64,000 nt of DNA, taken from the NCBI GenBank assembly GCA_041664265.1, contig JBAYLD010000002.1, forward strand, positions 35,505-99,504. The letters are read 5' to 3'. Source of the DNA: Minisyncoccota bacterium (GTDB taxonomy: Bacteria; Patescibacteriota; Minisyncoccia; Phycocordibacterales; Phycocordibacteraceae). The notes beneath the pieces were generated by a model that searched no databases, was not told the origin of the DNA, and saw only the letters and a program-made list of their open reading frames with translations. Both the position numbers and the translations under genes were made by a program. Shown piece by piece: positions 5,534 through 29,898 of this stretch (its first letter is position 1; the number at the start of each line of letters is the position of its first letter).

Positions 5534-6205
5534 CTATATCCAATTGATTGGCGTTTGGCCGCGAGAAGCGAGGTAGGCGTTCGCCTTAGAGAAGTGCTTA
5601 GAGCCGAAGAAGCCAGAGGCGGCGGAGAAGGGCGAGGGGTGCGGCGCTTCGAGGACGAGATGTTTGGTGCGATCAATATGCGCTCCCTTCGCCTTCGCGT
5701 AGTTGCCCCAGAGCATGAAGACGAGATGCTCGCTCTCATCTCCGAGCGTGCGGATTACAGCGTCGGTAAATTGCTCCCAGCCGTGATTTTGATGCGAACC
5801 AGCGTTATGAGCACGAACAGTGAGCGTCGCGTTGAGCAACAAAACGCCCTGTTTTGCCCATCGCGATAGATCGCCGTTATTTTTTGTAGACACCGGGTGT
5901 CCACAATCACTTTCGATCTCTTTGAAGATGTTTTGTAGAGATGGAGGTACGGCAATTTTTTCATCCACTGCAAAAGCCAATCCATTCGCCTGCCCTATTC
6001 CGTGATACGGGTCCTGACCAAGAATCACCACTTTTACCTTATCAAAAGGACACAAGTCGAATGCGCGAAAAATGTTCTTAGGCGCGGGGTACACCTTCCC
6101 TTCTTTGTATTCACTCTTCACAAAGGCCGTGAGCTTTACGAAATATTCCTTTTCAAACTCGCCTCCCAAATGCTTCGCCCATAATGATTCTATCTTTACG
6201 GTCAT
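5534..6205 (-). CDS. ung: uracil-DNA glycosylase, family 1
   Basis: GQDPYH water-activating motif, HPSPFS, WAKQGVLLLN; start at MTVKIESLW with RBS AAAGGAG upstream. Confidence 0.85.
   Translation of the reverse strand: MTVKIESLWAKHLGGEFEKEYFVKLTAFVKSEYKEGKVYPAPKNIFRAFDLCPFDKVKVVILGQDPYHGIGQANGLAFAVDEKIAVPPSLQNIFKEIESDCGHPVSTKNNGDLSRWAKQGVLLLNATLTVRAHNAGSHQNHGWEQFTDAVIRTLGDESEHLVFMLWGNYAKAKGAHIDRTKHLVLEAPHPSPFSAASGFFGSKHFSKANAYLASRGQTPINWI
5885..5905. repeat. palindrome TGTAGACACCGGGTGTCCACA (family C) inside ung
   Basis: near-identical 20-mer at 48831-48851 (intergenic); variant GATGGACACTCCGTGTCCATC at 6215-6235. Confidence 0.7.
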
Positions 6206-6214
6206 ACTCCTTTT

Positions 6215-6235
6215 GATGGACACTCCGTGTCCATC
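6215..6235. repeat. palindrome GATGGACACTCCGTGTCCATC immediately upstream of ung RBS
   Basis: perfect 9-bp arms; lies between nuclease stop (6246) and ung start (6205). Confidence 0.6.
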
Positions 6236-6245
6236 ATTTTTTCGT

Positions 6246-7034
6246 TCATGTTCCTGCATTTTTCTTCTTATTTTCAGTATGTAGAGCGAGCAGTTTCTTC
6301 CCCGCCATGTCGCGGTACTGGCAATAGTCGCAGTCCGGATGTGCGTCGGGTATCGCGTCGCTGTCGAGGCATTTTTTTATATTCAAGAGCGTACGCTCTA
6401 TCCAAGAATCATCGCCCTCGTAGGGTATAAGCGTCAATTCAAAATTAAGGACACCGTCAAACGCCCCCCTGTCTTTGTCGGCATTCGCATAAACGAAATA
6501 GCCGGTGTTAGAAACCTTGAAGCCGCTTCTCCGGAAGAGCCATTGGTAGGTCTCCATCTGGCGCTTGTATCCCTCATGCCAGTCTTCGTCGAGGGATTCT
6601 ATCCGCGCGTCCTTACTGGTCGATTTGTAATCAACAATGATGAGCTCGCCGTCAGGCTTGACCCACACGTCATCTATCGCTCCCGATATCCGGAACCCTG
6701 TCGGCTCATGCGTAATTTCTATGCCTTTAAAGTTCTCGCGCCAGACATTCAGGTTCGCGTGTTCGAAAGGAATAGCGTCGAGCCCATAGGCCTGCATGAG
6801 CGGATGAGTCGTCGCCTCAGCTCGGTGGATATCAAACTCCTTTTTTAGCAGTGCATCAACGGCAGAGTTCAGGCTGAAGGGATAGCCGGGCGGTCGGGCG
6901 GTGCCGAGCTTGTTATCCAGATAAAAGCAACGCGGGCAGTCAATGAATAAGCTTATCTTCGACCGTGAGAGTCGCCAATTACTGCCGCCATAATTCCATC
7001 CGGGATTCCGATCCGGCTTGTAGTATTTGCTCAT
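6246..7034 (-). CDS. Cas4-like / RecB-family PD-(D/E)xK nuclease with 4 Cys (Fe-S), no CRISPR context
   Basis: motifs GAIDDVW, IVDYKST, QMETYQWL; N-terminal CPRC and C-terminal CDYC cysteine pairs. Confidence 0.6.
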   Translation of the reverse strand: MSKYYKPDRNPGWNYGGSNWRLSRSKISLFIDCPRCFYLDNKLGTARPPGYPFSLNSAVDALLKKEFDIHRAEATTHPLMQAYGLDAIPFEHANLNVWRENFKGIEITHEPTGFRISGAIDDVWVKPDGELIIVDYKSTSKDARIESLDEDWHEGYKRQMETYQWLFRRSGFKVSNTGYFVYANADKDRGAFDGVLNFELTLIPYEGDDSWIERTLLNIKKCLDSDAIPDAHPDCDYCQYRDMAGKKLLALHTENKKKNAGT

Positions 7035-7552
7035 GGCGTGGTTTTGAAATACGCGACCACGGATGCGCCGGTGTCAAAATCGACGTAGACGCTATTGACG
7101 GCGAAATCAAAGGTACCGTTTCCGTCATCGCGATACAGTTCAACGGCATATGATCGGCCCGGCTCGGTCGCCCGCAGAAGCTGCACAGGCACGGAGCTAC
7201 GAGGGCCATCTACGCGCGCGGCGCCAAGCACGTTCCCGAGGTTGCCGCTGGTTACCTCGCGCACGGCGACCCAGACACCCGGTGGCGGCACCGTGATCGA
7301 CTCGACCATAACCACGCTACCGGAGGATTGGTCTGCCACGGATACTGCGCCGCTCTTTTCTGTACCAAGGTTGGCGTCTTGTGTGCCGGAAAGAGGAGAG
7401 TCTGCTCCCCGCTGGTCGATAGGCAAAACAGGGAGAGAGAAGTTGCCGCTGAGGAAATAGGAGCCCGCGAGCAAGGCGCCGAGCATGATTCCGGCAACGA
7501 AGGAACCGACCGAGAAGCCGAAGGTACTGGTAGAGAAAGTGTTGCGCGTCAT
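7031..7552 (-). CDS. hypothetical membrane-anchored protein
   Basis: 173-aa ORF, N-terminal TM helix; 4-nt overlaps with both neighbours. Confidence 0.45.
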   Translation of the reverse strand: MTRNTFSTSTFGFSVGSFVAGIMLGALLAGSYFLSGNFSLPVLPIDQRGADSPLSGTQDANLGTEKSGAVSVADQSSGSVVMVESITVPPPGVWVAVREVTSGNLGNVLGAARVDGPRSSVPVQLLRATEPGRSYAVELYRDDGNGTFDFAVNSVYVDFDTGASVVAYFKTTP

Positions 7553-8418
7553 AGAGAAGAGCTGTTGTCCGCAGCACCAGGGAGCTCAAGGAGCCCATCG
7601 GCCTCTGCGAGGAGTTCGCCGATCCTCTCAGGTGACAAATGCAGCACGTCAAGTGCACGACGATCTTTCATAATAGTGTCGACCGCGATCACTCCCTGTT
7701 CGATAAGGAGCCGCTTCTCGGCGTGGGAAATACCGGTCAAGGTGGTGATCGGATACACTTTCGCGCGGCTCATGCGCATGAAGAGGCTGTTATCCGTCGG
7801 ATAGCCCCATCCGAGGAGTTCGACGCCCGCGCATTCGCCATACGCGATGGCTTCAGAGGTGAACTTAGTGTTCGTCACCAAGAGTCCACGGTCGATTGGA
7901 CACACGCGAGCTCCCTCGTTGCAGGAAAAAATGTCCTCGAAGCGGCTCTTCACATACAGGGCGACTTTCAGGTCAGTCTTGTAACTCGGGTCGTTATGAT
8001 ACTTCAACTCGGCGGCGAGATGGACGCCTTGTTCCGGATGCGATGCGTAGAGATCGATCTCGTGCATCACGCATCTTCCTTGCAGCAATTTGCGTGTCTC
8101 GACCTGCCATCCTTCTGCGCGATAGAGGTGTGAGACGAAGTCTTCAAATGGGTGACCGGTAGGCCCGAGCTCAAGAAGCGCACGTCGGAGCGCATAGCGG
8201 GCAGCGATCGGACGAGCCTCTTTGCGCAAGAGTGCGAAGGCGCGTGCATAAATCTCTCGCGAGGGAGCTCCCGGCACGACGGTGCTCGTGATTGCCTCGG
8301 CTATGCGTGCCGCGGTGTGTTCGCCTGCTCCTGCTCGTTTCAGAGAGATACCGAGGCGCACAGGATCAAAGATCTCGCTCGACCCATCGGCCTTAACGAT
8401 AGTTGGGAGAGGCGTCAT
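7549..8418 (-). CDS. ATP-cone domain fused to Mrr-like restriction-endonuclease (PD-(D/E)xK) domain
   Basis: IVKADGSSEIFDPVRLGISLKRAG ATP-cone start; HEIDLYA...AELKYH catalytic D...ExK; GLLVTNTKFTSEA Mrr C-terminal motif; start at MTPLPTIVK gives 4-nt overlap with upstream gene. Confidence 0.55.
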   Translation of the reverse strand: MTPLPTIVKADGSSEIFDPVRLGISLKRAGAGEHTAARIAEAITSTVVPGAPSREIYARAFALLRKEARPIAARYALRRALLELGPTGHPFEDFVSHLYRAEGWQVETRKLLQGRCVMHEIDLYASHPEQGVHLAAELKYHNDPSYKTDLKVALYVKSRFEDIFSCNEGARVCPIDRGLLVTNTKFTSEAIAYGECAGVELLGWGYPTDNSLFMRMSRAKVYPITTLTGISHAEKRLLIEQGVIAVDTIMKDRRALDVLHLSPERIGELLAEADGLLELPGAADNSSSL

Positions 8419-19216: not shown

Positions 19217-19261
19217 GACAAAAAAGAAAGGACCTAACAAGTTTTAAGCTTGTCAGGTCCT
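19217..19261 (-). terminator. rho-independent terminator closing the AT-rich operon
   Basis: AGGACCTGACAAG-CTTAAAAC-TTGTTAGGTCCT then TTCTTTTTTGT on minus strand. Confidence 0.6.
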
Positions 19262-19301: not shown

Positions 19302-20111
19302 TCACACCTGTGTCTTCCTTACCAAGGCGAAACCATCGGTCTGAAGCAGGATGCCTTTCTTTCGTTCGATGTAACTTAAGATATCTTCTTGAATGTCCTT
19401 GGGGTATTCTCCCCATCGCTTATTCAAGAAAAATTCGACGATTGAAATTACGTCTCGCATATTGCCCGCTATTGGCAAGTGTAATTCTGAATTGGCACTG
19501 CATGTTGATACTTCTATCGATCTGGTTTTGGCCAATTCATAGAATATATCGAGTGCGCTATCGATGGTTAAAGAATGATAACTTTCTTTCATTAACCGGG
19601 ATTTGAATGTAGATCTGAATTCGTGAATGTCATCATTTTTTCTTAAAACAACAACTAGACAACCATCAGAATTCAGCATGTCCAACATCCTCTTGTAAAT
19701 TCGCGGCAACACATCTCGTGCAAACGGAAGATGCGATACCAAGATTACATCGAATGAATTACTCGGCACAAAATCATCAAAAGTAGAGGGATTAATTTCT
19801 ACTTCAGCATACGGAGGAAATTGCTTTGCAATCAATCGCAATCGTTTTATTAAATCCTTGCTCGGCTCAAGCAAAGTTATGCTTACTCTTTTAAGTCGCC
19901 GAGCTCTGATTTTATTTAACGACAACCGAAGATATTCGCCATTTCCTGAACCAATGTCCAAAAGATTCAAATTATCTCGATTGAGTAATTTCCTTAGCAG
20001 ATTCGCTAGCACCGCTGATGATTTTTCCTTTTCGCTGGTGTACTTCAAGAATGTTTCGAAGACCGACTCTTCTTGTTTATCAAGATATTCGAATCCAACG
20101 TCTTTCCCCAT
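19302..20111 (-). CDS. class I SAM-dependent methyltransferase
   Basis: motif I LLDIGSGNGEY; AT-rich codon usage unlike flanks. Confidence 0.65.
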   Translation of the reverse strand: MGKDVGFEYLDKQEESVFETFLKYTSEKEKSSAVLANLLRKLLNRDNLNLLDIGSGNGEYLRLSLNKIRARRLKRVSITLLEPSKDLIKRLRLIAKQFPPYAEVEINPSTFDDFVPSNSFDVILVSHLPFARDVLPRIYKRMLDMLNSDGCLVVVLRKNDDIHEFRSTFKSRLMKESYHSLTIDSALDIFYELAKTRSIEVSTCSANSELHLPIAGNMRDVISIVEFFLNKRWGEYPKDIQEDILSYIERKKGILLQTDGFALVRKTQV

Positions 20112-20221
20112 GACATTTCACCTCCTTCCATTTTATTTAACCCAACTAATTACAAGTTATGGATGGGCGTAAAATAGAAAGGGTGCACCATTACTGATGC
20201 ACCCCACTTAATCCAATAAGA

Positions 20222-21316
20222 TCATGGCGTTCGGATTCCGCGAAGCGGTTCCTCCCCAAAGGTTAGGAACCACAGACTTCGATAATCCTCCCAAACCAAT
20301 GGTCTCATGCTTGTTCCGACAAACAGCTGTTCCAGAATCTGCCTTGCCTCAAGATAATACTCAAGGCGATTGGCTTCTGGATCTTTAAGAGTTGCCTCAT
20401 GGTACTTATGCATTTGCAGAGTATTGATGGTAGGGAACTTGTTAATGTGATCCTTGAAGCAACCGAAGTGGTACTCCATCACATCCAATGGTTCCGTCCC
20501 GACAATGTAGGCGAAATTCACTTCGTACCCTAATCCTCGCGCGAAATCCATGGATTCGCAGGCGTCTCGGAGACTGACCGCCCTCTTCTCCTTTCGCAAC
20601 AGACCTCGACGTTCGAACGTTTCTAATGAGAAGCAGATGCCAAATGGCTGAATCTCGGCGATACTTCTCAACCAATCTTTGCTTATGATCTGCGAACCGA
20701 GATAAAAGATCTTGCCAACAAACTTGTATTCCATCGAGACCTTCTTTAAGGTACGAAGAAATCGGCAAAGATCTTCGCTATTTTCATAGCAACCGGTCAC
20801 AATCGAGATCTGCACCAGATGAGACAAGTCGGTCAATCCGTACTTGGACATCCACCCTTCAAAGAATTCTCTCAGATCGAAGTCGGTTATCAGTTTCTTC
20901 CTATCATAAGGAACCTGATATGCCGCATAACAGAACTTGCAGCCGTGGCATGAAGTTCTGGAATTCGGATTGATATTGAGCGATGTCCCTTTCCTCCGTG
21001 GATAGTGGGAATCGCAAATATCTTCAGTCGGTCCTATCGCCTGTCCGATAACCGTATTCTGCAAAAGCAGAATATTATTGTCGACTACAGTGAAGGGACT
21101 CTCCTGATTAATCGGCAACGCGAAGTAATAATCAAGTTCCTCTCGCTGTTTAGCGTAATTAAACAGATTGCTGTCGGCCAAATGAAGGGCCATCCGCATC
21201 CTGTTGTAATCACACTCGAAGTTAACACCGTTGATGTTAAGAGCGATGAACAATACATCTTCCAGAGGTATGTTATACCTCTCCGCAAGCCGCACAACCG
21301 TGTTGATTTCTAACAT
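20222..21316 (-). CDS. hypothetical protein with CxxCxxC motif (possible Fe-S enzyme), unknown family
   Basis: 364 aa; SCHGCKFCY is not the canonical radical-SAM CxxxCxxC; no other motif recognised. Confidence 0.45.
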   Translation of the reverse strand: MLEINTVVRLAERYNIPLEDVLFIALNINGVNFECDYNRMRMALHLADSNLFNYAKQREELDYYFALPINQESPFTVVDNNILLLQNTVIGQAIGPTEDICDSHYPRRKGTSLNINPNSRTSCHGCKFCYAAYQVPYDRKKLITDFDLREFFEGWMSKYGLTDLSHLVQISIVTGCYENSEDLCRFLRTLKKVSMEYKFVGKIFYLGSQIISKDWLRSIAEIQPFGICFSLETFERRGLLRKEKRAVSLRDACESMDFARGLGYEVNFAYIVGTEPLDVMEYHFGCFKDHINKFPTINTLQMHKYHEATLKDPEANRLEYYLEARQILEQLFVGTSMRPLVWEDYRSLWFLTFGEEPLRGIRTP

Positions 21317-21319
21317 GAC

Positions 21320-22168
21320 TCATAATCCTCCTTTTGAATTTGTCACTACCTCGAGGAAATGATTCCTTCTTTGACAGATGATTAGAGTAGTCAGTACCGG
21401 TACCGAGATAGCGCCGTGCCGTTTAACGATTTCTGAGATGTGTCCAAAGAATCTTGAACGCTTCTCTTCCTCGACTTCAACGATCTTGGGAAAGGTATTG
21501 AGTAGTTTCGGATATGTCTGATCGTCATAGTTGTACACGGTCAGATATTTCCTCAAGTAAATCGGGTAGAACAAGGGATTTGCGACAACCTCTTGTTCTC
21601 TGTGATTTAACTTCAATAACACACCCTCATTCACGTTGTTTACAGTCGATTCATCGGGATAGACATCCGGTAGAAACTCATGATAGGCGTTGTTGATTTC
21701 AGCAGTAACCGATGAATCGTCCTGAAAGAAACTATTCCAGACCAGGATGAGATGACCCGACTTATTGAGCACATCGGAAACTTGTTTGAACTTGTCCCCC
21801 TCGCTCAACCAATGAAATGCTGTGAAGGCCAGAATCGCGTCAAACTTTTCCGCAACCCGGAAATTCTCGAATGTATCCTCGATAATCTCGACATTCTTGA
21901 ACGAACTCGTCTGTTCCCTGGCAATTGCTGCCAGACGTGCGCCCGGTTCGATAGCAACAATATGACAACCGAGCTTAGCAAGCTCGATGGTCGCAATGCC
22001 ACTGCCAGCTCCGATTTCCATTAAACGAGAACTACCATCAATCCCACATTGCTCTTTGATATCTGAGAACAGCGCAACCGGATATCCCGGACGAACTGAA
22101 TGATAATTGTCAGCATATACGTCAAATGACGCATTGAAGATATTTTTCCCTTTGAACATCATAGTCAT
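21320..22168 (-). CDS. class I SAM-dependent methyltransferase
   Basis: motif I LMEIGAGSGIAT; 4-nt overlap with upstream gene. Confidence 0.7.
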   Translation of the reverse strand: MTMMFKGKNIFNASFDVYADNYHSVRPGYPVALFSDIKEQCGIDGSSRLMEIGAGSGIATIELAKLGCHIVAIEPGARLAAIAREQTSSFKNVEIIEDTFENFRVAEKFDAILAFTAFHWLSEGDKFKQVSDVLNKSGHLILVWNSFFQDDSSVTAEINNAYHEFLPDVYPDESTVNNVNEGVLLKLNHREQEVVANPLFYPIYLRKYLTVYNYDDQTYPKLLNTFPKIVEVEEEKRSRFFGHISEIVKRHGAISVPVLTTLIICQRRNHFLEVVTNSKGGL

Positions 22169-22749
22169 TCTCCTTTTATGGTTGATTGATGTAAGAACTG
22201 CATGAACCGATCTTTAACATCGACCAATTCTAATGGCCGACGGAAGTCACGGCGTCCACCGAGTTCAATTTTTGCAACAATGAATCCCGGTCCTTGCCTG
22301 AAATGCAATATAGCACGCCTTAGATCTTTCTGATTATTTACCACCTGTACATACCGATAACCAACAGTAAGTGCTAGTTGATCGAGATGAGCGGAATCAG
22401 ACATTGATTTTTCTTCGTTACAAGAACCATAAGCACTATTATCAATAACGATATGAAGCAAATTTTCAGGTTGCTTATTGCCTATCGTTACAATAGAGCC
22501 AAGATTCATCAACAAACTTGCATCACCATCAATTATTACCACCCGCTTAGTGGGGCACGAGATAGCTAATCCCAACCCAATTGATGATGCGAGTCCCAAT
22601 GAACCGGGAACATAGATATTTCTGACTGAGTCGAATTTTTCGAAAACCTCTCGAGAAATCAACCCCGTTGTTGAAATATTGACTGTATCCGCCGGATCAA
22701 TCACTCTCATAATGGTTTCAATTGCTTCTTTTCTTTTCATCTTTGCCAC
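22165..22749 (-). CDS. TPP-dependent 2-oxoacid decarboxylase, beta subunit (ComE / phosphonopyruvate decarboxylase C-half-like)
   Basis: TPP-binding IDGDASLLMNLGS...N motif. Confidence 0.65.
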   Translation of the reverse strand: MAKMKRKEAIETIMRVIDPADTVNISTTGLISREVFEKFDSVRNIYVPGSLGLASSIGLGLAISCPTKRVVIIDGDASLLMNLGSIVTIGNKQPENLLHIVIDNSAYGSCNEEKSMSDSAHLDQLALTVGYRYVQVVNNQKDLRRAILHFRQGPGFIVAKIELGGRRDFRRPLELVDVKDRFMQFLHQSTIKGE

Positions 22750-23276
22750 CCCCTCTTTAGTAACAAGAATGTAGGAAGTTTGACCTTACGCATTTTTTGG
22801 AACATTGAAGTGACAAGTATCGGTATGTCTTGCCCTCCAAAAACCACAAATGGTAAACCAAATGACCGAAGCAAAGCTTCAGTTGCCCCACCTGTTGTTA
22901 AGTGTTGCACCGCATCTTCACCCTCGCATCCACGATAAGATACCGTAAAAAAGACCGGGATCTTATAAGGAACAAGTAGAGACGCAATGTCGTTTGAAGC
23001 AGCGAAAAGACCGGAGTTTTGCATATAGACGATGGGAGTTTTGCCAGCAAAGTATGCGCCAGCCACTAACCCAACGGCTTCAGACTCGCGGTTAGCAGAC
23101 ACATGAAGCATCTTAGGCTCATCAATAAAATTCTTAATGATATGCCTTAACACTCCACATGGAACTCCAGATACAAAATCGACACCAAATTTTAAGAACT
23201 GCTGGTGCATTTGATCTGCTTTTTCGCTACGTCTTCCATCCAGCACATTGAATACACTTCCTTCATCTGTGTTCAC
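22737..23276 (-). CDS. TPP-dependent 2-oxoacid decarboxylase, alpha subunit (ComD / Ppd N-half-like)
   Basis: GVDFVSGVPCGVL pyrimidine-binding domain; GTG start with RBS AAAGGAGGAAAT. Confidence 0.65.
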   Translation of the reverse strand: MNTDEGSVFNVLDGRRSEKADQMHQQFLKFGVDFVSGVPCGVLRHIIKNFIDEPKMLHVSANRESEAVGLVAGAYFAGKTPIVYMQNSGLFAASNDIASLLVPYKIPVFFTVSYRGCEGEDAVQHLTTGGATEALLRSFGLPFVVFGGQDIPILVTSMFQKMRKVKLPTFLLLKRGWQR

Positions 23277-23329
23277 GTTTATTTCCTCCTTTTTATTTTA
23301 TTTAGTATGTCAAAGAGCCCCTGTCTTCC

Positions 23330-23365
23330 TTGAGAACATCTCAAGGGCGGTTGCATTTTATCATT
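23330..23365 (-). promoter_or_regulatory. candidate promoter TTGACA-N17-ATAAAA (with TG) for the decarboxylase/MT sub-operon
   Basis: minus-strand TTGACAAATCTAATAATTAAATGATAAAAT in the 141-nt gap after the ABC gene. Confidence 0.35.
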
Positions 23366-23418
23366 TAATTATTAGATTTGTCAATACATTGCTCTGTTAT
23401 ACAAAATGTGTTGATATT

Positions 23419-25239
23419 TTATTCATGCAATCCTATATGCAACTCATAGAGATGACGATAGATGCCTCCTTCGATCAGCACGAGATCATCGTGGCTACCG
23501 CTTTCAGCAATATGACCTTCCTTTAGAACGAGTATCTTCCCCGCCTTGCGTACCGTCGAGAGTCGATGCGCGATGATGAATGTTGTGCGATTGTGCATGA
23601 GCTTCTCGAGTGCACTCGTAACGAAACGTTCGGTTTCTGAATCAAGTGCCGAGGTCGGCTCGTCAAGAATGAGAATCTCTGGATCACGTAAAATTGCGCG
23701 CGCAATGGCGATTCTTTGCTTTTGCCCCACCGAGAGTTTAATACCGCGCTCGCCGACGAGTGTCTGATATCCATTCGGCAAATCTGTGATGTACTCATCT
23801 ATGTGTGCCTCGCGTGCGGCGTGTGCAATTTGTTCTTCTGTTGCATCAAACATCCCGTAGCAAATGTTGTTACGAATAGTATCATTGAAAAGCGCAACTT
23901 CTTGCGGGACGACAGCGATGCGTGTACGCAAGTCAGTAAGGTCCCAATGGCGTGTATCGAGACCATCAACCATCACACTGCCTGCACTTGGGAAATAATA
24001 TCCAGACACTAGCGAGACGGTCGTACTCTTCCCTCCGCCGGACTCGCCGACGAGTGCGATGACTTCACCTGGGTTAACAGTAAATGACATGTTAGAGAGC
24101 ACCTCGGCCTGATCGGCGTCATAATGAAACGAAACATGATCAAACGCGATTCGCCCTGAATGTTCAGTCGGTACTGTGGCGGTAATGGGGTGATAATTTT
24201 CTTCTTTCTCGTTAAAAACTCTTTCGAGTTGGCCAGCTGCGGTCAAACCATTCTGGACCATCTGCCAACTTTGACCGAGAGCGACAAAAGGCCCAAAGAA
24301 CATGAGAGCATACCCATTCAGAGCGATAAGCTCTCCAACGGTCATTGAGCCATTCGCTACTGAGCTCGCCGAAGCAACAAAAACGGTAAGCTGTGTGAGA
24401 AATACAATAGTACGTTGAAAGAATCCCGCATTGCTCCATATTCGGTCAAGGGAATGCCAAAGCTGGCCAGTTTTCCCTGCGAGATTTTTCTGCACCTTGG
24501 CAATCTCGTACTTTTCTGCGGCTGCCTGCTTTACTGAAGCAACTTGTTGTACTGCTGCCGCTGCATCGTCCCAATATTCATTCCACGATTCATGAGCGAT
24601 GTGATCAATTGTGGCAACCGGTCGTAACATAAATACGAGTACCACGCCATAGAAAAGAACACCGGCTGCTAGCACACCAGCCATCGGAAGACTTATTGTT
24701 GCCGCAAGAATAATGCCGATTGCAACCGAGAGGAGTTGCGGCCCAATCTGAATTGCGTTCTGCATGATCGACGAAATGCGCCATCCTGCCATACTAATCT
24801 TAGAAAGTACCCCGTTTATGTGTTCATTGGAGTGATATGTAAGCGGAAGTTTGAAAAGATGAGCGAATCCTTCGGTCTGAATAGCAAGATGGGACTGCAC
24901 ATCAATCGTGCGACGTTTGCGATCCATCACCCAGTCGATGCTATTTGCCACAACCTGAATGACCGCCCAAATAGCGAGCATGAGTGCCCAAAATGGAAAT
25001 GTGCCGCCGTTTGTTTTTCCTTGCGAAAGACTGATGAGCGCATCAAAAAATCGCCCAGTGATGTAAGGTACTGCGCCATTAGCAACTGCAGAAATAAAAC
25101 CAAGAAAACCAAGTACAAAAAATTCGTTACGATAACGGCGAGTGTGCCGCCAGATACCTCGTATACCCTCGCGCATAGACACCGGCTCTGTCCTTATTTC
25201 TTCAACTGCATCCTCGTCGGAATCCTTAATATCGATCAT
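23419..25239 (-). CDS. ABC exporter, fused permease + ATPase (MsbA-like type I)
   Basis: six N-terminal TM helices; Walker A GESGGGKST; signature LSVGQKQRIAIARA; Walker B ILILDEPTSALD. Confidence 0.85.
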   Translation of the reverse strand: MIDIKDSDEDAVEEIRTEPVSMREGIRGIWRHTRRYRNEFFVLGFLGFISAVANGAVPYITGRFFDALISLSQGKTNGGTFPFWALMLAIWAVIQVVANSIDWVMDRKRRTIDVQSHLAIQTEGFAHLFKLPLTYHSNEHINGVLSKISMAGWRISSIMQNAIQIGPQLLSVAIGIILAATISLPMAGVLAAGVLFYGVVLVFMLRPVATIDHIAHESWNEYWDDAAAAVQQVASVKQAAAEKYEIAKVQKNLAGKTGQLWHSLDRIWSNAGFFQRTIVFLTQLTVFVASASSVANGSMTVGELIALNGYALMFFGPFVALGQSWQMVQNGLTAAGQLERVFNEKEENYHPITATVPTEHSGRIAFDHVSFHYDADQAEVLSNMSFTVNPGEVIALVGESGGGKSTTVSLVSGYYFPSAGSVMVDGLDTRHWDLTDLRTRIAVVPQEVALFNDTIRNNICYGMFDATEEQIAHAAREAHIDEYITDLPNGYQTLVGERGIKLSVGQKQRIAIARAILRDPEILILDEPTSALDSETERFVTSALEKLMHNRTTFIIAHRLSTVRKAGKILVLKEGHIAESGSHDDLVLIEGGIYRHLYELHIGLHE

Positions 25240-25283
25240 CTAGGCAGTATACACCTCGGTTCTTCGAGCAGAAACGAAGAATA

Positions 25284-25769
25284 TTATAGCGTTTCCTTCA
25301 GCGCCAACGCCCGTTCAATATAGCGTTCGCCATCCTCTCCCCAATCAAAATATTGCTTGATGTCTTTCGGGTCTATGAGTTTTATTTCGGTAACATCGCC
25401 GTCGGGATCTGAGACGAATTCCCCTATCGGTTCAACAATACAGACGGAACGGGTTTGTAGGGTTCGATCCGGCTCGAAGGCCTCCAAATAACCAAAAACC
25501 TTTTGCTTTAGGACGCGCATATTTGTCTCTTCAAACACCTCGCGCACAACTGCTTCTTCAAAGGTTTCGCGGGGTTCTACTCCACCTCCGGGCGGTCCCC
25601 AGGATTTTTTCTCTTCAGCGTACACAACAACGAGCTTGTCGCCACAAAAACAATAGGCGTGTACTCCCTTTATTTTTTCTCCATTCAGCTCTTCAGGCGA
25701 ATCAATATCGCGGTACACAAATGGTATGGTTTGTTTGTCGCGGTTGGTTAGTGTTGAGTGAATTTCCAT
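25284..25769 (-). CDS. NUDIX hydrolase (paralog of 45200-45697)
   Basis: GPPGGGVEPRETFEEAVVREVFEETN Nudix box; ~75% identical to second copy. Confidence 0.75.
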   Translation of the reverse strand: MEIHSTLTNRDKQTIPFVYRDIDSPEELNGEKIKGVHAYCFCGDKLVVVYAEEKKSWGPPGGGVEPRETFEEAVVREVFEETNMRVLKQKVFGYLEAFEPDRTLQTRSVCIVEPIGEFVSDPDGDVTEIKLIDPKDIKQYFDWGEDGERYIERALALKETL

Positions 25770-25953
25770 TTTGCGAATGATTATACTTGATAACTATAAC
25801 GGTAGCGATTTAAGAGCCGGCCGCTTAGTTTTCCTCTTTCGGCCACCTCGCGGGACTGTTCGACGGTCCGGCGGCGGAAGTTCAATAGTGAATGTAAAAG
25901 GAATACCTTTACCCCTGTCTCCAAAATATTGGTTCATATGGGACAAACGATTC

Positions 25954-26541
25954 CTATTTTGAGCATATGATATGGGCATTTTCGCTTGTTTCGGGTAAGA
26001 AATCAACTACGCGCCGTATGAAATTGAATCCGGCATCATTCGTGTATTCAATTTCAAAAATGTCCGGATACGAAACCGTAAAGAAAAAATCCTTTGGGAA
26101 ACCGAATTGCTGGACACAAAACTCACTCAGCACCGTCCCGTGTGTACTAACCGCGACCGCACTCGCAGGATGTCTCTCGGCTATTTTCTTTAGCGTCGAA
26201 AAAAAGCGATGATTCGCTTCATCGATACTCTCACCGCCTTTGAATTTAAAATCTCTGTTCCCAACAATTTCTGTATGGAAGAGCGCTGCGTCGCCACGGT
26301 AGTCGAGCTCAACAAGCCCACTGTCTTCTATGGCAGGGAGCGATACCTTCGCGGATAATGGGGCGATCGTCTGTAACGCTCTCGGTAAGCGAGAACTATA
26401 CAGACAATCAATCGGTTGTTCCCAGAGATCGGCCATCTGTACGGCTTGAGTCGTGCCGCGCGACGAAAGATCGATATATCTGTTGGTGGCAGAGTCCCGA
26501 GTGTATTCAACGGACGCATGCCGTATGAGAAACAGCCGCAT
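25954..26541 (-). CDS. histidine phosphatase family protein (phosphoglycerate-mutase-like)
   Basis: LIRHAS catalytic RHG-type motif near N-terminus. Confidence 0.6.
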   Translation of the reverse strand: MRLFLIRHASVEYTRDSATNRYIDLSSRGTTQAVQMADLWEQPIDCLYSSRLPRALQTIAPLSAKVSLPAIEDSGLVELDYRGDAALFHTEIVGNRDFKFKGGESIDEANHRFFSTLKKIAERHPASAVAVSTHGTVLSEFCVQQFGFPKDFFFTVSYPDIFEIEYTNDAGFNFIRRVVDFLPETSENAHIICSK

Positions 26542-26604: not shown

Positions 26605-27798
26605 ATGAGTCGCCGCATTCTACTGGTGGCAGACTACGGCGCCCCGTATATCGGCGGCATGGAAATTCATGCCGAAGAGTGCGCCCGACATTTTGAGCAG
26701 CGCGGCGATCTCGCTGGAGTATGTCTCATGCCTCTTGCCGACAGTGTCGACGCGCTCCCCCACTTTCAAAAAAGTACATCGCTCTGTGCGCCGATCACGA
26801 AGCTCTCACTGTCCTCGATCTTCACGCCTGAAGAACTCGAACACGTTATCACGGATAACGGAACTATGGACGACACCGTTCTTTTTTTTAACAGTGTGTA
26901 TTGGGTGCGCATTCTTGGGGATTTGAAACAACGATTCCCTTCTTTAAAGATTTTCGTCCGTTCGGGTGGCAACGATATCTTCCAAGCTCGCGTCGAAGGC
27001 ACGGGCGACACTCTGAAAGAACGCCAAGCGTACATTGTTCAGCAGATCACGTCGTATGCCGATGGCCTCATTGTCAACAGTGCGTTTAGCCGGCAACGCC
27101 TCGCCATCCTCGGTATTCCGGAAGAACACATGTGCGTTGTTTCTGGAGGCGTAGACACTTCACGATTCACCCCAGCCGGCCAAGAAGAAAGAAATGCCGT
27201 AAGAGAAACCCTCGGATTACCGAAGAATCACGTTATTGTTCTCGCTGTATGCCGCTTAGTGCCCTTTAAGGGCATGGAGCAAACGCTCTCGATCCTGAGT
27301 CGCCTGCAAACGCAAGCTACTTTCCTTTATCTGATAATCGGAGACGGCCCAGAACGCGCATCGCTTGAACGCCACGCACAGCAAATCGGGATAGAAAAAC
27401 AGGTTCGATTCCTTGGTGTAGTACCTCATCAAACCATACCGGACTATTTTCGAGCCGCAGATGTCTACGGTTATTTCCCAAGGCTGGAAACTATGCACGA
27501 GTCAGGAGGCACGTACGTGCACACCGAGACGATGGGTCGCAGTTTCTGTGAAGCGATGGCGGCAGCGCTGCCGATAGTTTCTTCGCATGTGGGCGGCATA
27601 GAAGAGATCGTGCGCACGGGCGAGCACGGTTTCTTGACTCAAGACGTGCGCACGGGCGAAGAAGAACGAGCGCTCGCGCAGCTTATAGACGATCCACTTC
27701 TCCGCAAGCAGTTCGGTGAACGGGCACGCCAGCATGCTACGGAACACTATTCATGGGAAGCCGTCTGTTCAAGCTACCTAAGCTTTTTCTCACTATGA
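26605..27798 (+). CDS. glycosyltransferase family 1 (GT4-like)
   Basis: C-terminal E-x7-E region HESGGTYVHTETMGRSFCEAMAAALPIV. Confidence 0.7.
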   Translation: MSRRILLVADYGAPYIGGMEIHAEECARHFEQRGDLAGVCLMPLADSVDALPHFQKSTSLCAPITKLSLSSIFTPEELEHVITDNGTMDDTVLFFNSVYWVRILGDLKQRFPSLKIFVRSGGNDIFQARVEGTGDTLKERQAYIVQQITSYADGLIVNSAFSRQRLAILGIPEEHMCVVSGGVDTSRFTPAGQEERNAVRETLGLPKNHVIVLAVCRLVPFKGMEQTLSILSRLQTQATFLYLIIGDGPERASLERHAQQIGIEKQVRFLGVVPHQTIPDYFRAADVYGYFPRLETMHESGGTYVHTETMGRSFCEAMAAALPIVSSHVGGIEEIVRTGEHGFLTQDVRTGEEERALAQLIDDPLLRKQFGERARQHATEHYSWEAVCSSYLSFFSL

Positions 27799-28910
27799 AG
27801 ATTGCCATTGTCTGTGGAAGAGATATCGAACGGGCGCGCGATACTGATGGAGGTTCAATACTTATTCGGAACCTAGCACATGAACTGCGTCGACAAGGAC
27901 ACGGTATCACGATATACACACCCTCACATGCCTCCTATGGGGGATCCGAGCAATACTTTTTAGACCGCATAGCAATCAGTCAACGCTGGGGCGCATATTT
28001 TGACGACGGGAAGCTCCACAAGTACGACCGCGTGTATATATTCCACGTCGCGAACACATTCGGCCTCTTCGAAGGAAATCGTTGCCCTCTCTCGCGCACG
28101 GTGCTCTTCCCCATGCTCTTGGGAGCGTTTTACCGCCTCTTTCAGAGCGTTCCCCCAGAATATATACGGGCTGAAAAGGAGGCGCTGAAAGCGGCTCATT
28201 ATATCGCCACTCCATCTGCCGCCGAACAGGATGTATTAAGGGATTTTTACCATGTCCCTAAGGAGAAGATCTTCATCACGCGCCGCGGCTATGACCCCTC
28301 GATTTTTAAACCGCTTCTGCGGACACATATTCCCAAAGACCGACTCGATATCGTGTGTGCCAATGCACTCAAACCGCAAAAAGATCAGCGATTCTTTGTT
28401 GACCTTGTCGCAACGGCACGCGAATACATACCGGAAATAGTCATACACCTTGCCGGCATCGGCGAGATGAATGGCAACGCAGGGTACGGAAACTACGCAC
28501 GAGCATTGAAACGAGAAGTGGCCGAGCGCGGCCTTACGCCGCACTTCATCTTCCATGAACTTTTGTCCCAGTCTGCAGTGAATAGGCTCATGCAGGAGTG
28601 TCACCTCGCGTTCTATCCCTCTCGCACAGAAACGTTTGGCAAGTCCGTTCTCGAAAGCGTCGTGACGGGGCTCCCCACTATCGTGCTCAACGACGTTCCG
28701 GCTTATGACGAATTCCTCGAACATGCTTATACCTGCATAAAAATCACGCGGTCAGCGACGGCGGCATTCGAAGCTATTGAGACGTTGCGTACTGATCCGA
28801 AGCGCTATCGCGCGCTAAGCGAGAATGGCATCGCCATTGCGCCCCGATTCACTTGGGAGCGGGTGGTTGCAGATTTCCTACACGACTCTGAAGCGCGTAT
28901 AGGCTCCTGA
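27795..28910 (+). CDS. glycosyltransferase family 1
   Basis: ETFGKSVLESVVTGLPTIV; start MKIAIVCG overlaps upstream stop (ATGA). Confidence 0.7.
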   Translation: MKIAIVCGRDIERARDTDGGSILIRNLAHELRRQGHGITIYTPSHASYGGSEQYFLDRIAISQRWGAYFDDGKLHKYDRVYIFHVANTFGLFEGNRCPLSRTVLFPMLLGAFYRLFQSVPPEYIRAEKEALKAAHYIATPSAAEQDVLRDFYHVPKEKIFITRRGYDPSIFKPLLRTHIPKDRLDIVCANALKPQKDQRFFVDLVATAREYIPEIVIHLAGIGEMNGNAGYGNYARALKREVAERGLTPHFIFHELLSQSAVNRLMQECHLAFYPSRTETFGKSVLESVVTGLPTIVLNDVPAYDEFLEHAYTCIKITRSATAAFEAIETLRTDPKRYRALSENGIAIAPRFTWERVVADFLHDSEARIGS

Positions 28911-28983: not shown

Positions 28984-29898
28984 ATGTGTTCTTTGAAAGT
29001 TCTGAAGATTGATCTCATCAACCGTTGTAACGCAGCTTGTCCCTTCTGCCCGTATCACGCCGCACGAGTGCATCAAGCACCGCTCTCGCGATTGTCTATA
29101 ACCGACGTGCAAGGAATCGTTCTCGGTTGCAGGCGATTGGGGATCACCCCCCAGTTTAAATTCTCGGGGCGAGGCGAGGCGACGGTCCATCCGGATTTTC
29201 CTGAGATGGTACGACTCGCTAGTGCAGAAGGGTTCCAGACAAGACTCATCACCAACGGCCTTCTGCTCCGTACGCACGCTTCGGTACTCGCCGAGTGCGG
29301 TACCGACGTCGTCGTATCGATCCACGGCAATGAAGCAACTCATGATGCGGTGATCGGTAAGCGCGGAGCGCTCTGCCTCGCGGAGGCCGGTATCGAAGCA
29401 GTGGCGGCTCGCGGTGCATCAGTGACCGTCGGGATCATCCTCACGCCGGATACCATCGAGGATCTGGAGGAGATCGGAGCACGCTATGCATCTCAAGAAA
29501 AAGTGCGCGTGCGCGTTCATCACAACTTCGACACGCACGTTCGAGAGTCGCTGTCACCGCACGCGGTACAAGCGGCACTTGCCCGACTCAAAGAGCGGTT
29601 TCCGAACATCCGTACCGTTCCCCATGTACCTGAAGAGTTGTTGGATCGTTATTACAGCACGAACGGGTTCGTACTCCAGCCGCACGCTTGTACGCATTTT
29701 ATCGAGGAGGTAGAGATCTCTTCTGACGGTATGGTGAGCGTGTGCGGAGCCGCTCCCTTCGGCAACATACGCAACGAGCCGTTCGAGCATCTTGTAGCAA
29801 GCAACTCACGCACGTCCTTTATGGCGACTATCGCAGGCGAGCTGCGATCTGCCGATGGGCTCGCAGCGACGCGCTGCGATCGCTGCTGCTACCAGTAA
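28984..29898 (+). CDS. radical SAM protein with C-terminal Cys-rich auxiliary-cluster domain
   Basis: CNAACPFCPY CxxxCxxC; C-terminal Cys cluster ending CDRCCYQ; RBS AAAGGAGG. Confidence 0.75.
   Translation: MCSLKVLKIDLINRCNAACPFCPYHAARVHQAPLSRLSITDVQGIVLGCRRLGITPQFKFSGRGEATVHPDFPEMVRLASAEGFQTRLITNGLLLRTHASVLAECGTDVVVSIHGNEATHDAVIGKRGALCLAEAGIEAVAARGASVTVGIILTPDTIEDLEEIGARYASQEKVRVRVHHNFDTHVRESLSPHAVQAALARLKERFPNIRTVPHVPEELLDRYYSTNGFVLQPHACTHFIEEVEISSDGMVSVCGAAPFGNIRNEPFEHLVASNSRTSFMATIAGELRSADGLAATRCDRCCYQ

Follow-up and report, generated by a model that had tools for sequence, protein, structure and literature searches.

A predicted radical-SAM-fold protein with a CX2CX2C cysteine motif, encoded beside a split thiamine diphosphate decarboxylase in a Minisyncoccota bacterium

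The stretch of DNA considered here, 64,000 nucleotides of a Minisyncoccota contig to which we refer as the window, encodes on its minus strand a 364-codon open reading frame (ORF) that starts with ATG and whose product, the target of this study, contains CHGCKFC at residues 123-129, its sole CxxCxxC motif, followed directly by YAAYQVPYD. The plus-strand frame over the same interval is riddled with stops, and the start codon is supported by homologues that begin at the same residue. An earlier reading of the letters alone (the original prediction) had described such a protein, without giving its strand, and had noted that it lacks both the canonical radical S-adenosylmethionine (SAM) motif CxxxCxxC and a ferredoxin-like fourth Cys-Pro. 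Both observations hold: CxxxCxxC is found nowhere in the 364-aa sequence, and no Cys-Pro follows the triad in the target. An identical protein is recorded for a 'Candidatus Paceibacterota' metagenome-assembled genome (MAG), where it is annotated as hypothetical, and 187 database relatives were retrieved at E<=1e-3, almost all of them of about 363 aa.

The target gene is the last of a tight four-gene operon (Table 1), in which it follows the alpha and beta subunit genes of a split decarboxylase dependent on thiamine diphosphate (TPP; 22165-23276 for the two together) and the gene of a methyltransferase, MT1. The alpha and beta genes overlap by 13 nt and beta and MT1 by 4 nt, while 3 nt separate MT1 from the target. 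A promoter-like site lies within the 142-bp gap 5' of the alpha gene, whose GTG start codon is immediately preceded by an AGGAGG Shine-Dalgarno sequence, and a terminator-like hairpin begins 17 nt past the target stop codon. Both sites are consensus matches, and they agree with the comparison of loci given below. A second methyltransferase gene, MT2, lies beyond this hairpin, has a terminator-like hairpin of its own (19229-19261), and adjoins the cassette in only a few of the related loci described below (L007, L008, L010, L013, L022 and L039). The neighbours named by the original prediction, a methyltransferase on each side and the decarboxylase upstream, are thus all present; its placing of the target between two methyltransferases is right as to position, but only the upstream one belongs to the conserved, co-transcribed cassette.

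Among solved structures, the decarboxylase subunits are nearest to RhiE (9iz3_A, E=2e-15, alpha) and RhiF (9iz3_B, E=6e-27, beta), and the beta subunit bears a TPP/Mg motif, GDAS...x25...DNS. RhiEF is the split phosphonopyruvate decarboxylase of rhizocticin biosynthesis (PMC12141560). Both subunits fall below the curated NCBIfam equivalog cut-offs of phosphonopyruvate decarboxylase (Ppd, TIGR03297) and of ComDE (TIGR03845/6): alpha scores 104.9 bits with sulfopyru_alph (ComD; cut-off 148) and beta 146.4 bits with sulfopy_beta (ComE; cut-off 221.5), and with the Ppd model (Ppyr-DeCO2ase) the 99.7 bits of alpha and the 155.4 bits of beta stay, even summed, below the cut-off of 312.5. The nearest PDB relatives of MT1 are 3hnr, HvrF (9e72), CmoM and Tmt1.

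Table 1. Features of the target gene and its surroundings, in positions of the window
Feature	Positions	Strand	Basis or remark
Target gene, radical-SAM fold, CX2CX2C motif, 364 aa	20222-21316, stop codon included	minus	
N-terminal domain of target, residues 1-108, two helices and a beta sheet	20993-21316	minus	AlphaFold2
Radical-SAM-like partial (beta/alpha)6 barrel of target, residues ~109-335	20312-20992	minus	AlphaFold2, Foldseek, conservation
CHGCKFC (C123, C126, C129), predicted ligands of a site-differentiated [4Fe-4S] cluster	20930-20950	minus	Conservation, loop position
C-terminal tail of target, residues 336-364, signature RPxxWE[ND]YRSLW	20225-20311	minus	Conservation
MT1, class I SAM-dependent methyltransferase, Methyltransf_11/25 type, 282 aa	21320-22168	minus	
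TPP decarboxylase beta (PP-domain), ComE/RhiF-like, 194 aa	22165-22749	minus	Pfam TPP_enzyme_C
TPP decarboxylase alpha (PYR-domain), ComD/RhiE-like, 179 aa	22737-23276	minus	Pfam TPP_enzyme_N
Promoter-like site: TTGACA, 18-nt spacer with TG, TAAAAT	23355-23384	minus	Consensus match only
Terminator-like hairpin: 11-bp stem, 6 GC pairs, T-rich tail	20180-20205	minus	Consensus match only
MT2, second methyltransferase, 269 aa	19302-20111	minus	Lineage-specific accessory
MsbA-like ABC exporter	23419-25239	minus	
NUDIX hydrolase	25284-25769	minus	
Histidine phosphatase	25954-26541	minus	

An AlphaFold2 model built on the alignment (pLDDT 91, pTM 0.90) divides the target into an N-terminal domain, a beta/alpha barrel and a short tail. 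A Foldseek comparison of the model with the PDB gave 72 matches at E<=1e-3; of the best 50 of these, which are the ones listed, nearly all are radical-SAM enzymes, aligned over about 240 columns at best E=4e-7. They include lipoyl synthase (LipA, 5exi, E=4e-7), MgmA (9ccb), biotin synthase (BioB) and lysine 2,3-aminomutase (LAM, 2a5h), together with SkfB, SuiB, BlsE, MqnE, viperin, PFL-AE, HemN, HydE, anSME, NifB, MiaB and PylB. The original prediction, which had proposed a Foldseek search with an AlphaFold model, held that the protein could not be placed by eye in a known family; the missing CxxxCxxC does not put it outside such families, considering that its fold is the partial TIM barrel of radical-SAM enzymes. 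The accompanying suggestion of a novel Fe-S or metal-dependent tailoring enzyme survives in part, as this is an uncharacterised Fe-S-type enzyme in a biosynthetic-looking operon, but not one outside the known families. Neither profile nor structure placed the target in a well-known housekeeping family, the outcome that would have spoken against that suggestion.

In the model, the three Cys sit in the loop after the first barrel strand (beta-1, residues 112-115), and F128 occupies the position of the aromatic residue in the canonical CxxxCx(aromatic)C motif. Across 47 homologues of 52-80% identity, C123, G125, C126, C129 and Y130 are invariant; all three Cys are retained in 184 of the 186 full-length relatives that we aligned, so that the conservation which the original prediction had wished to see checked is near-complete. 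The CxxCxxC motif, in the form C-x-G-C-x-F-C, is carried by 215 of the 270 sequences retrieved, most of the others being fragments without this region. Considering that it is invariant or nearly so in the relatives, CHGCKFC is not a chance feature.

Indeed, the family itself links this motif to the canonical one. When 1.84 billion representative proteins were searched with a profile, 310 clusters (at 50% identity) emerged at E<=1e-3, with 91 of them at E<=1e-30, and a canonical CX3CX2C stands at the equivalent position in P0145 (CKGGCRFC, family E=9e-80) and P0160 (CIGKCTFC, 1e-68), as well as in the remote relatives P0214, P0222, P0238, P0251, P0267 and P0270. Two of these, P0214 (42.5 bits) and P0251 (34.2 bits), which the family profile retrieved at E=5e-29 to 2e-19, pass the Pfam Radical_SAM threshold and so connect the window protein transitively with the superfamily. 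Furthermore, the archaeal loci L068 and L069 encode CIGKC[TK]FC and still adjoin split TPP genes; the two Cys spacings are therefore interchangeable in one functional context. CX2CX2C in this family is the radical-SAM cluster motif shortened by one residue, and not the ferredoxin motif. Ferredoxins use such a CX2CX2C triad to ligate three irons of a single cubane, so that a site-differentiated [4Fe-4S] cluster in which one iron stays free for SAM is chemically reasonable for the target as well.

In the alignment of 186 sequences no further Cys is family-wide, C35, C101, C176 and C228 being absent from many members. C101 and C176 co-vary but are dispensable (C/C in 127 sequences, S/N in 17), and could serve most members as a redox or hydrogen-donor pair; C176 directly follows T174-G175, the equivalent of the GGE motif.

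Several results weigh against assigning the target to the radical-SAM superfamily. The window protein fails the literal CX3CX2C test, its spacing being CX2CX2C at an equivalent position, and it reaches only E=0.006 and 17.3 bits with Pfam Radical_SAM (PF04055), for which the gathering threshold is 29.5. A search of all PDB chains by phmmer and with a 57-sequence profile gave spurious matches only and no solved radical-SAM relative, and hhalign found no match between the family profile and the canonical radical-SAM/SPASM protein encoded elsewhere in the window. The GGE motif of SAM binding is not literal, T-G-C-[YF] standing in its place; residues 130-140, beside the cluster loop, are modelled with low confidence; and in a subclade linked to GrpB the motif reads C-x-G-C-x-A-C, with Ala in place of the aromatic residue. 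NCBIfam gave no meaningful match for the target and nothing useful for ten remote relatives. Set against the fold, the conservation of the Cys and the canonical motifs within the family, these points leave it very probable that the target is a radical-SAM-fold Fe-S protein that uses its three Cys.

More specific types were considered and rejected. The fold and the missing Cys-Pro speak against a ferredoxin; a two-cluster SPASM/twitch enzyme would have further conserved Cys, whereas only three Cys are family-invariant and there is no Pfam SPASM match; and a B12-dependent enzyme of the Fom3/PhpK type would have an N-terminal cobalamin-binding domain, whereas Pfam finds no B12-binding match and the N-terminal domain matches no PDB fold. 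An enzyme of ribosomally synthesised and post-translationally modified peptides (RiPPs) with a RiPP recognition element (RRE) was set aside too, as the N-terminal domain matches no PDB fold; among the conserved neighbours, which are TPP enzymes and methyltransferases, we saw no recurring small ORF. In public records, members of the family go by the names 'hypothetical protein', 'radical SAM protein' and 'Radical SAM core domain-containing protein'. No entry in Pfam, NCBIfam or the PDB sequences describes the family, and full-text searches of the literature yielded no paper on a CX2CX2C radical-SAM family or its link to TPP enzymes or GrpB, nor on Ppd/ComDE-like genes in the candidate phyla radiation (CPR) or DPANN.

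Conservation extends well beyond the cluster loop. On the barrel, it concerns T174-G175 (after beta-2, at the GGE position), Y205-x-G-S-Q (after beta-3), S230-x-E232 (on beta-4) and Y270-I-x-G273-x-[ED]275 (on beta-5), strand-end residues which, judging from the model, may correspond to the positions of SAM-binding motifs, and in addition R237, K244, P295, N298, Q301, R325 and E329. The N-terminal domain, modelled alone at pLDDT 91, has no match in the PDB (best Foldseek E=1.7, TM 0.28 or less), which sets it apart from RRE, B12 and ferredoxin domains, and contributes the family-invariant residues N27, G30, R39, R41, D99, Y105 and R107, while P339, W342, Y345, R346 and W349 are conserved in the tail. 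Together, the N-terminal residues and R237, K244, R325, R346, E232, E329, Y270, Y345, W342 and W349 make up an invariant basic and aromatic set, which from its composition could line a pocket for a small anionic ligand such as a phosphate or carboxylate. By analogy with TYW1, in which a pyruvate-binding Lys forms an imine, we may even speculate that the invariant K244 forms an imine with an aldehyde or keto substrate.

The order TPP-alpha, TPP-beta, methyltransferase, target is repeated in three distant Patescibacteria contigs with unrelated flanks, and a scan of one genome per GTDB species with the C-terminal tail pattern (alignment A3, the broader A2 being too diverse) located 80 loci. Their hosts are Patescibacteria, including Saccharibacteria, DPANN archaea (Aenigmat-, Micr-, Nano-, Woese- and Parvarchaeota), Clostridia and Bacilli MAGs, many actinomycetes, and Sorangium. 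Neighbours were identified by tblastn and Pfam in an informative set of 74 non-duplicate loci with usable flanks; for high-GC actinomycete loci, where greedy ORF calling is unreliable, tblastn coordinates were used. A TPP enzyme lies within 6 kb in 56 of the 74, and it is of two types: a split ComDE/Ppd-like decarboxylase (34 loci) or a phosphoketolase-like enzyme (XFP) of ~690-730 aa (23 loci), with L074 possessing both. The co-occurrence with ComDE-like genes that the original prediction proposed to examine is therefore found for the first type, other partners taking its place elsewhere. The link to TPP enzymes is not universal, which counts against a role tied to them: 15 of the 74 loci have GrpB, a protein of nucleotidyltransferase fold, instead, often with a His- or Tyr-phosphatase, and four loci have neither partner.

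Gene fusions are found around the same genes. TPP beta is fused to MT1 in L009 (474 aa, 6577-8001), single-chain alpha-beta decarboxylases of ~405 aa are encoded in the archaeal loci L042 (1452-2672) and L043 (9076-10290), and GrpB is fused to the target homologue in P0146, P0148 and P0168. MT1 accompanies the target in some 25 CPR loci, and in the Clostridia loci as well, there at 41% identity. A neighbour-joining tree resolves three clades, namely actinomycete/XFP, GrpB and split-TPP, and the Clostridial loci of XFP type nest within the split-TPP clade. This nesting implies that the TPP partner was swapped while the radical enzyme and MT1 stayed, which in turn speaks for an equivalent contribution from the two TPP enzymes. 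Perhaps their common ground is a C2 intermediate bound to TPP (dihydroxyethyl- or acetyl-TPP), which the Ppd-like decarboxylase would derive from a 3-substituted pyruvate and the phosphoketolase-like enzyme from a ketose phosphate.

Around this core, the accessory genes differ by lineage. In DPANN and other CPR loci there are one to three further methyltransferases, along with a HAD phosphatase and an uncharacterised protein of ~200 aa, whilst actinomycete loci add an enolase-superfamily protein (acid-sugar-dehydratase-like), a HAD phosphatase, two small proteins and a methyltransferase, and several of them a weakly PhpK-like B12 radical-SAM protein as well. The GrpB subclade is mostly Saccharibacteria, with phosphatases (L047, L048, L051, L053-L056, L061, L063, L066, L067, L073 and L080). 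That phosphatases recur suggests phosphorylated intermediates, and that methyltransferases are so numerous suggests that the end product is methylated. Several actinomycete clusters and one archaeal locus also encode a B12-binding radical-SAM protein next to the family member (L071 at 5633-7273, L059, L062, L077, L078, L079, L082 and L043), its best NCBIfam match being the PhpK P-methyltransferase family, below threshold. Small proteins recur by subclade, of ~200 aa in DPANN/CPR, 214 and 155 aa in actinomycetes and ~150 aa in DPANN (for example L036:4056-4706, L083:10856-11954 and L031:262-708); hhalign detects no mutual relationship among accessory clusters c8, c9, c13, c17 and c20, and c8, c9, c13 and c20 have no significant Pfam or NCBIfam match. 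Several MAGs labelled 'uncultured Gammaproteobacteria' (L014, L017, L020, L021, L023, L026 and others) carry cassettes 50-80% identical to Patescibacteria ones; their contexts look Patescibacteria-like and the labels unreliable. A phage origin was also considered and rejected, as no relative was found among IMG/VR viral contigs.

In the window, GC content over ~20000-26000 is 43-47%, against 50-56% in the flanks, and this low-GC stretch spans the four-gene cassette together with the genes of the ABC exporter, NUDIX hydrolase and histidine phosphatase, which suggests that the block was laterally acquired. These three genes are possible accessories, though they are not conserved with the cassette, a close ABC homologue being nearby only in L018 and L052 and a NUDIX gene only in L011. 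About 8 kb from the target, and after two GT4 glycosyltransferase genes (26605-28910, plus strand), lies the gene of the canonical radical-SAM/SPASM protein (304 aa, 28984-29898, plus strand); L003, L005, L010 and L052 likewise have radical-SAM/SPASM genes with a methyltransferase, no more than 8 kb from the cassette.

How might such an enzyme work? We think it fairly likely that the target generates a radical from SAM in the canonical way and acts with it on a small anionic metabolite connected with the TPP enzyme. C123, C126 and C129 of the CX2CX2C loop would bind three irons of a [4Fe-4S] cluster, leaving the fourth free to chelate SAM, and one-electron reduction would then cleave SAM to a 5'-deoxyadenosyl (5'-dAdo) radical. 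This radical may abstract a hydrogen from, or add to, a small negatively charged metabolite, which would lie between the barrel and the N-terminal domain, gripped by a ring of the invariant residues R39, R41, R107, R237, K244, R325, R346, Y105, Y270 and Y345. The substrate is most likely a product or precursor of the TPP enzyme, perhaps an aldehyde or a C2/acyloin unit for which a 3-substituted pyruvate or a ketose phosphate would be the source, and the final compound would be methylated. The analysis shows the fold, the conservation of the Cys, their exchange with the canonical motif, the operon structure and the gene linkage; cluster binding, SAM cleavage, the kind of substrate and the sequence of reactions we infer.

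The decarboxylase invites the thought of phosphonate or sulfonate tailoring, in which it would be a true Ppd or a sulfopyruvate-type enzyme, and the radical enzyme and methyltransferase would modify phosphono- or sulfoacetaldehyde. The nearest solved relative of its subunits is RhiEF and their best NCBIfam matches are Ppd and ComDE; MT1 resembles HvrF, a methyltransferase of the pantaphos (hvr) phosphonate cluster; and the weakly PhpK-like gene of actinomycete clusters fits, in that Fom3 and PhpK act downstream of Ppd in the fosfomycin and phosphinothricin pathways. However, a six-frame search for the PepM signature EDKxxxxxNS found it neither in the window nor in 84 of 85 related loci, and on that ground a classical phosphonate cluster was rejected for the window. 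The one locus that has it is L074 (774-5699 and 8001-13796), from Actinophytocola sp., where Pfam confirms PEP_mutase; there, a CTP-transferase/PepM fusion, Ppd, an iron-dependent alcohol dehydrogenase (Fe-ADH) and a LicD-methyltransferase fusion make up a cluster of the phosphonate-decoration type directly upstream of the radical-SAM/enolase-superfamily/XFP-like cassette, at a distance of 5 kb from the family member, a proximity that favours the tailoring idea. Against it, genes that form sulfopyruvate (ComA/B/C-type or cysteate-route) are absent among the recurring neighbours, the decarboxylase subunits miss the curated cut-offs given above, and the partner in Clostridia and actinomycetes is a phosphoketolase-like enzyme, a type that is not known to act on phosphono- or sulfopyruvate. 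For the window, neither a standard phosphonate route nor one to coenzyme M is thus supported; there are still hints of phosph(on)ate chemistry, but we regard tailoring of this kind as unlikely.

An Fe-S enzyme that merely uses the radical-SAM scaffold, without making a 5'-dAdo radical, is also improbable. The shortened loop might shift SAM so that a different S-C bond is cleaved, for a 3-amino-3-carboxypropyl or methyl transfer of the Dph2 or ArsL type, or the three-Cys cluster might serve as a Lewis acid, as in dehydratases or IspH. The non-canonical motif, the altered GGE, the aromatic residue lost in the GrpB subclade and the very weak sequence likeness to canonical families would all agree with this, and the adjacent methyltransferase would be reminiscent of the pairing of ArsL with ArsM; yet some family members have the canonical CX3CX2C amid the same neighbouring genes, which speaks for the usual geometry of cluster and SAM, the structural neighbours are almost without exception classical enzymes that form 5'-dAdo, and the ferredoxin triad is a precedent for a shorter loop that need not change the chemistry. 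Perhaps, instead, the radical enzyme and methyltransferase act as maturases that modify or activate the TPP enzyme or its thiamine cofactor: TPP binding is the only property common to the two interchangeable partner types, and the protein-modifying PFL-AE, MgmA and anSME are among the structural neighbours. We consider this very unlikely, as a TPP partner is missing from the GrpB clade, small-molecule pathways are where HAD phosphatases, a sugar-acid-dehydratase-like gene and several methyltransferases would typically be met, and the invariant basic residues and compact N-terminal domain would better suit a small anionic ligand. Least credible of all is a housekeeping enzyme of RNA or protein modification. 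The translation genes of YchF and LeuRS do lie downstream of the cassette in the window, and MT1 has weak matches to Erm/KsgA-type models, reminiscent of an rRNA methyltransferase; but flanks vary by lineage while the cassette of TPP enzyme, methyltransferase and radical enzyme remains intact, the family is patchy over phyla and small for so large a protein set, no NCBIfam housekeeping model matches, and the GC content of the region departs from that of its surroundings.

Canonical radical chemistry on a small anionic metabolite is therefore the reading that we retain, and the usual pairing with a TPP enzyme in CPR, DPANN and some other bacteria points to an undescribed small-molecule pathway. 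We could speculate that this pathway is one of the few biosynthetic capacities kept by, and apparently laterally exchanged among, ultra-small CPR bacteria and DPANN archaea, that gut Clostridia and actinomycetes possess it too, and that its product is methylated, probably first phosphorylated, and a bioactive or signalling metabolite; so full a picture is tentative and, to our minds, rather doubtful. Its three core enzymes would be the TPP enzyme, the radical enzyme with CX2CX2C and the methyltransferase; in the boldest form, the radical enzyme and the Ppd-like decarboxylase would replace PepM in a PepM-independent route to a C-P (or C-S, C-As) compound.

Radical-SAM enzymes are usually recognised by their CX3CX2C motif, and the CX2CX2C family, with at least 310 clusters at 50% identity in both prokaryotic domains, slips under motif- and Pfam-based detection. 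It reveals that the cluster loop tolerates a one-residue contraction, and that a near-obligatory pairing with a TPP enzyme survives the swap of one type of TPP enzyme for another. The four-gene cassette is compact and testable, and its product is likely to matter for the symbiotic lifestyle of CPR and DPANN hosts with almost no biosynthesis.

Where does this family stand among known systems? With classical single-cluster radical-SAM enzymes, such as lipoyl synthase (5exi), biotin synthase, MgmA (9ccb), lysine 2,3-aminomutase (2a5h), viperin and PFL-AE, it shares the partial (beta/alpha)6 TIM barrel, the three-Cys loop after beta-1 and the aromatic residue before the last Cys, and its conserved strand-end residues may answer to their SAM-binding positions. 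It differs from them in having CX2CX2C instead of CX3CX2C and TGC[YF] instead of GGE, in the lack of any family-wide Cys for an auxiliary cluster, and in the lack of detectable sequence likeness to any solved member, and it adds a 108-residue N-terminal domain without PDB match and the WENYRSLW tail. Departure from the canonical cluster motif is in itself nothing exceptional, considering that ThiC (CX2CX4C), HmdB (CX5CX2C), QueE variants and ArsL (RCCLKC) have done so and kept radical SAM chemistry; none of these has CX2CX2C, and no NCBIfam match connects the target or its relatives to them. Ferredoxin-type CX2CX2CX3CP has the same triad spacing, whereas the target has no Cys-Pro, carries the motif once, and presents it in a loop of a TIM barrel and not in a ferredoxin fold. 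As in the RhiEF and ComDE systems, the operon partner is a two-subunit TPP decarboxylase without a middle domain, although it scores below the cut-offs of both families; unlike those pathways, the window shows no linked PepM or sulfopyruvate genes, the radical enzyme has no B12 domain, and a phosphoketolase-like enzyme replaces the decarboxylase in other lineages. On these grounds we classify the proteins as a distinct radical-SAM family, defined by a contracted cluster motif, a domain without PDB match and a conserved partnership with TPP enzymes.

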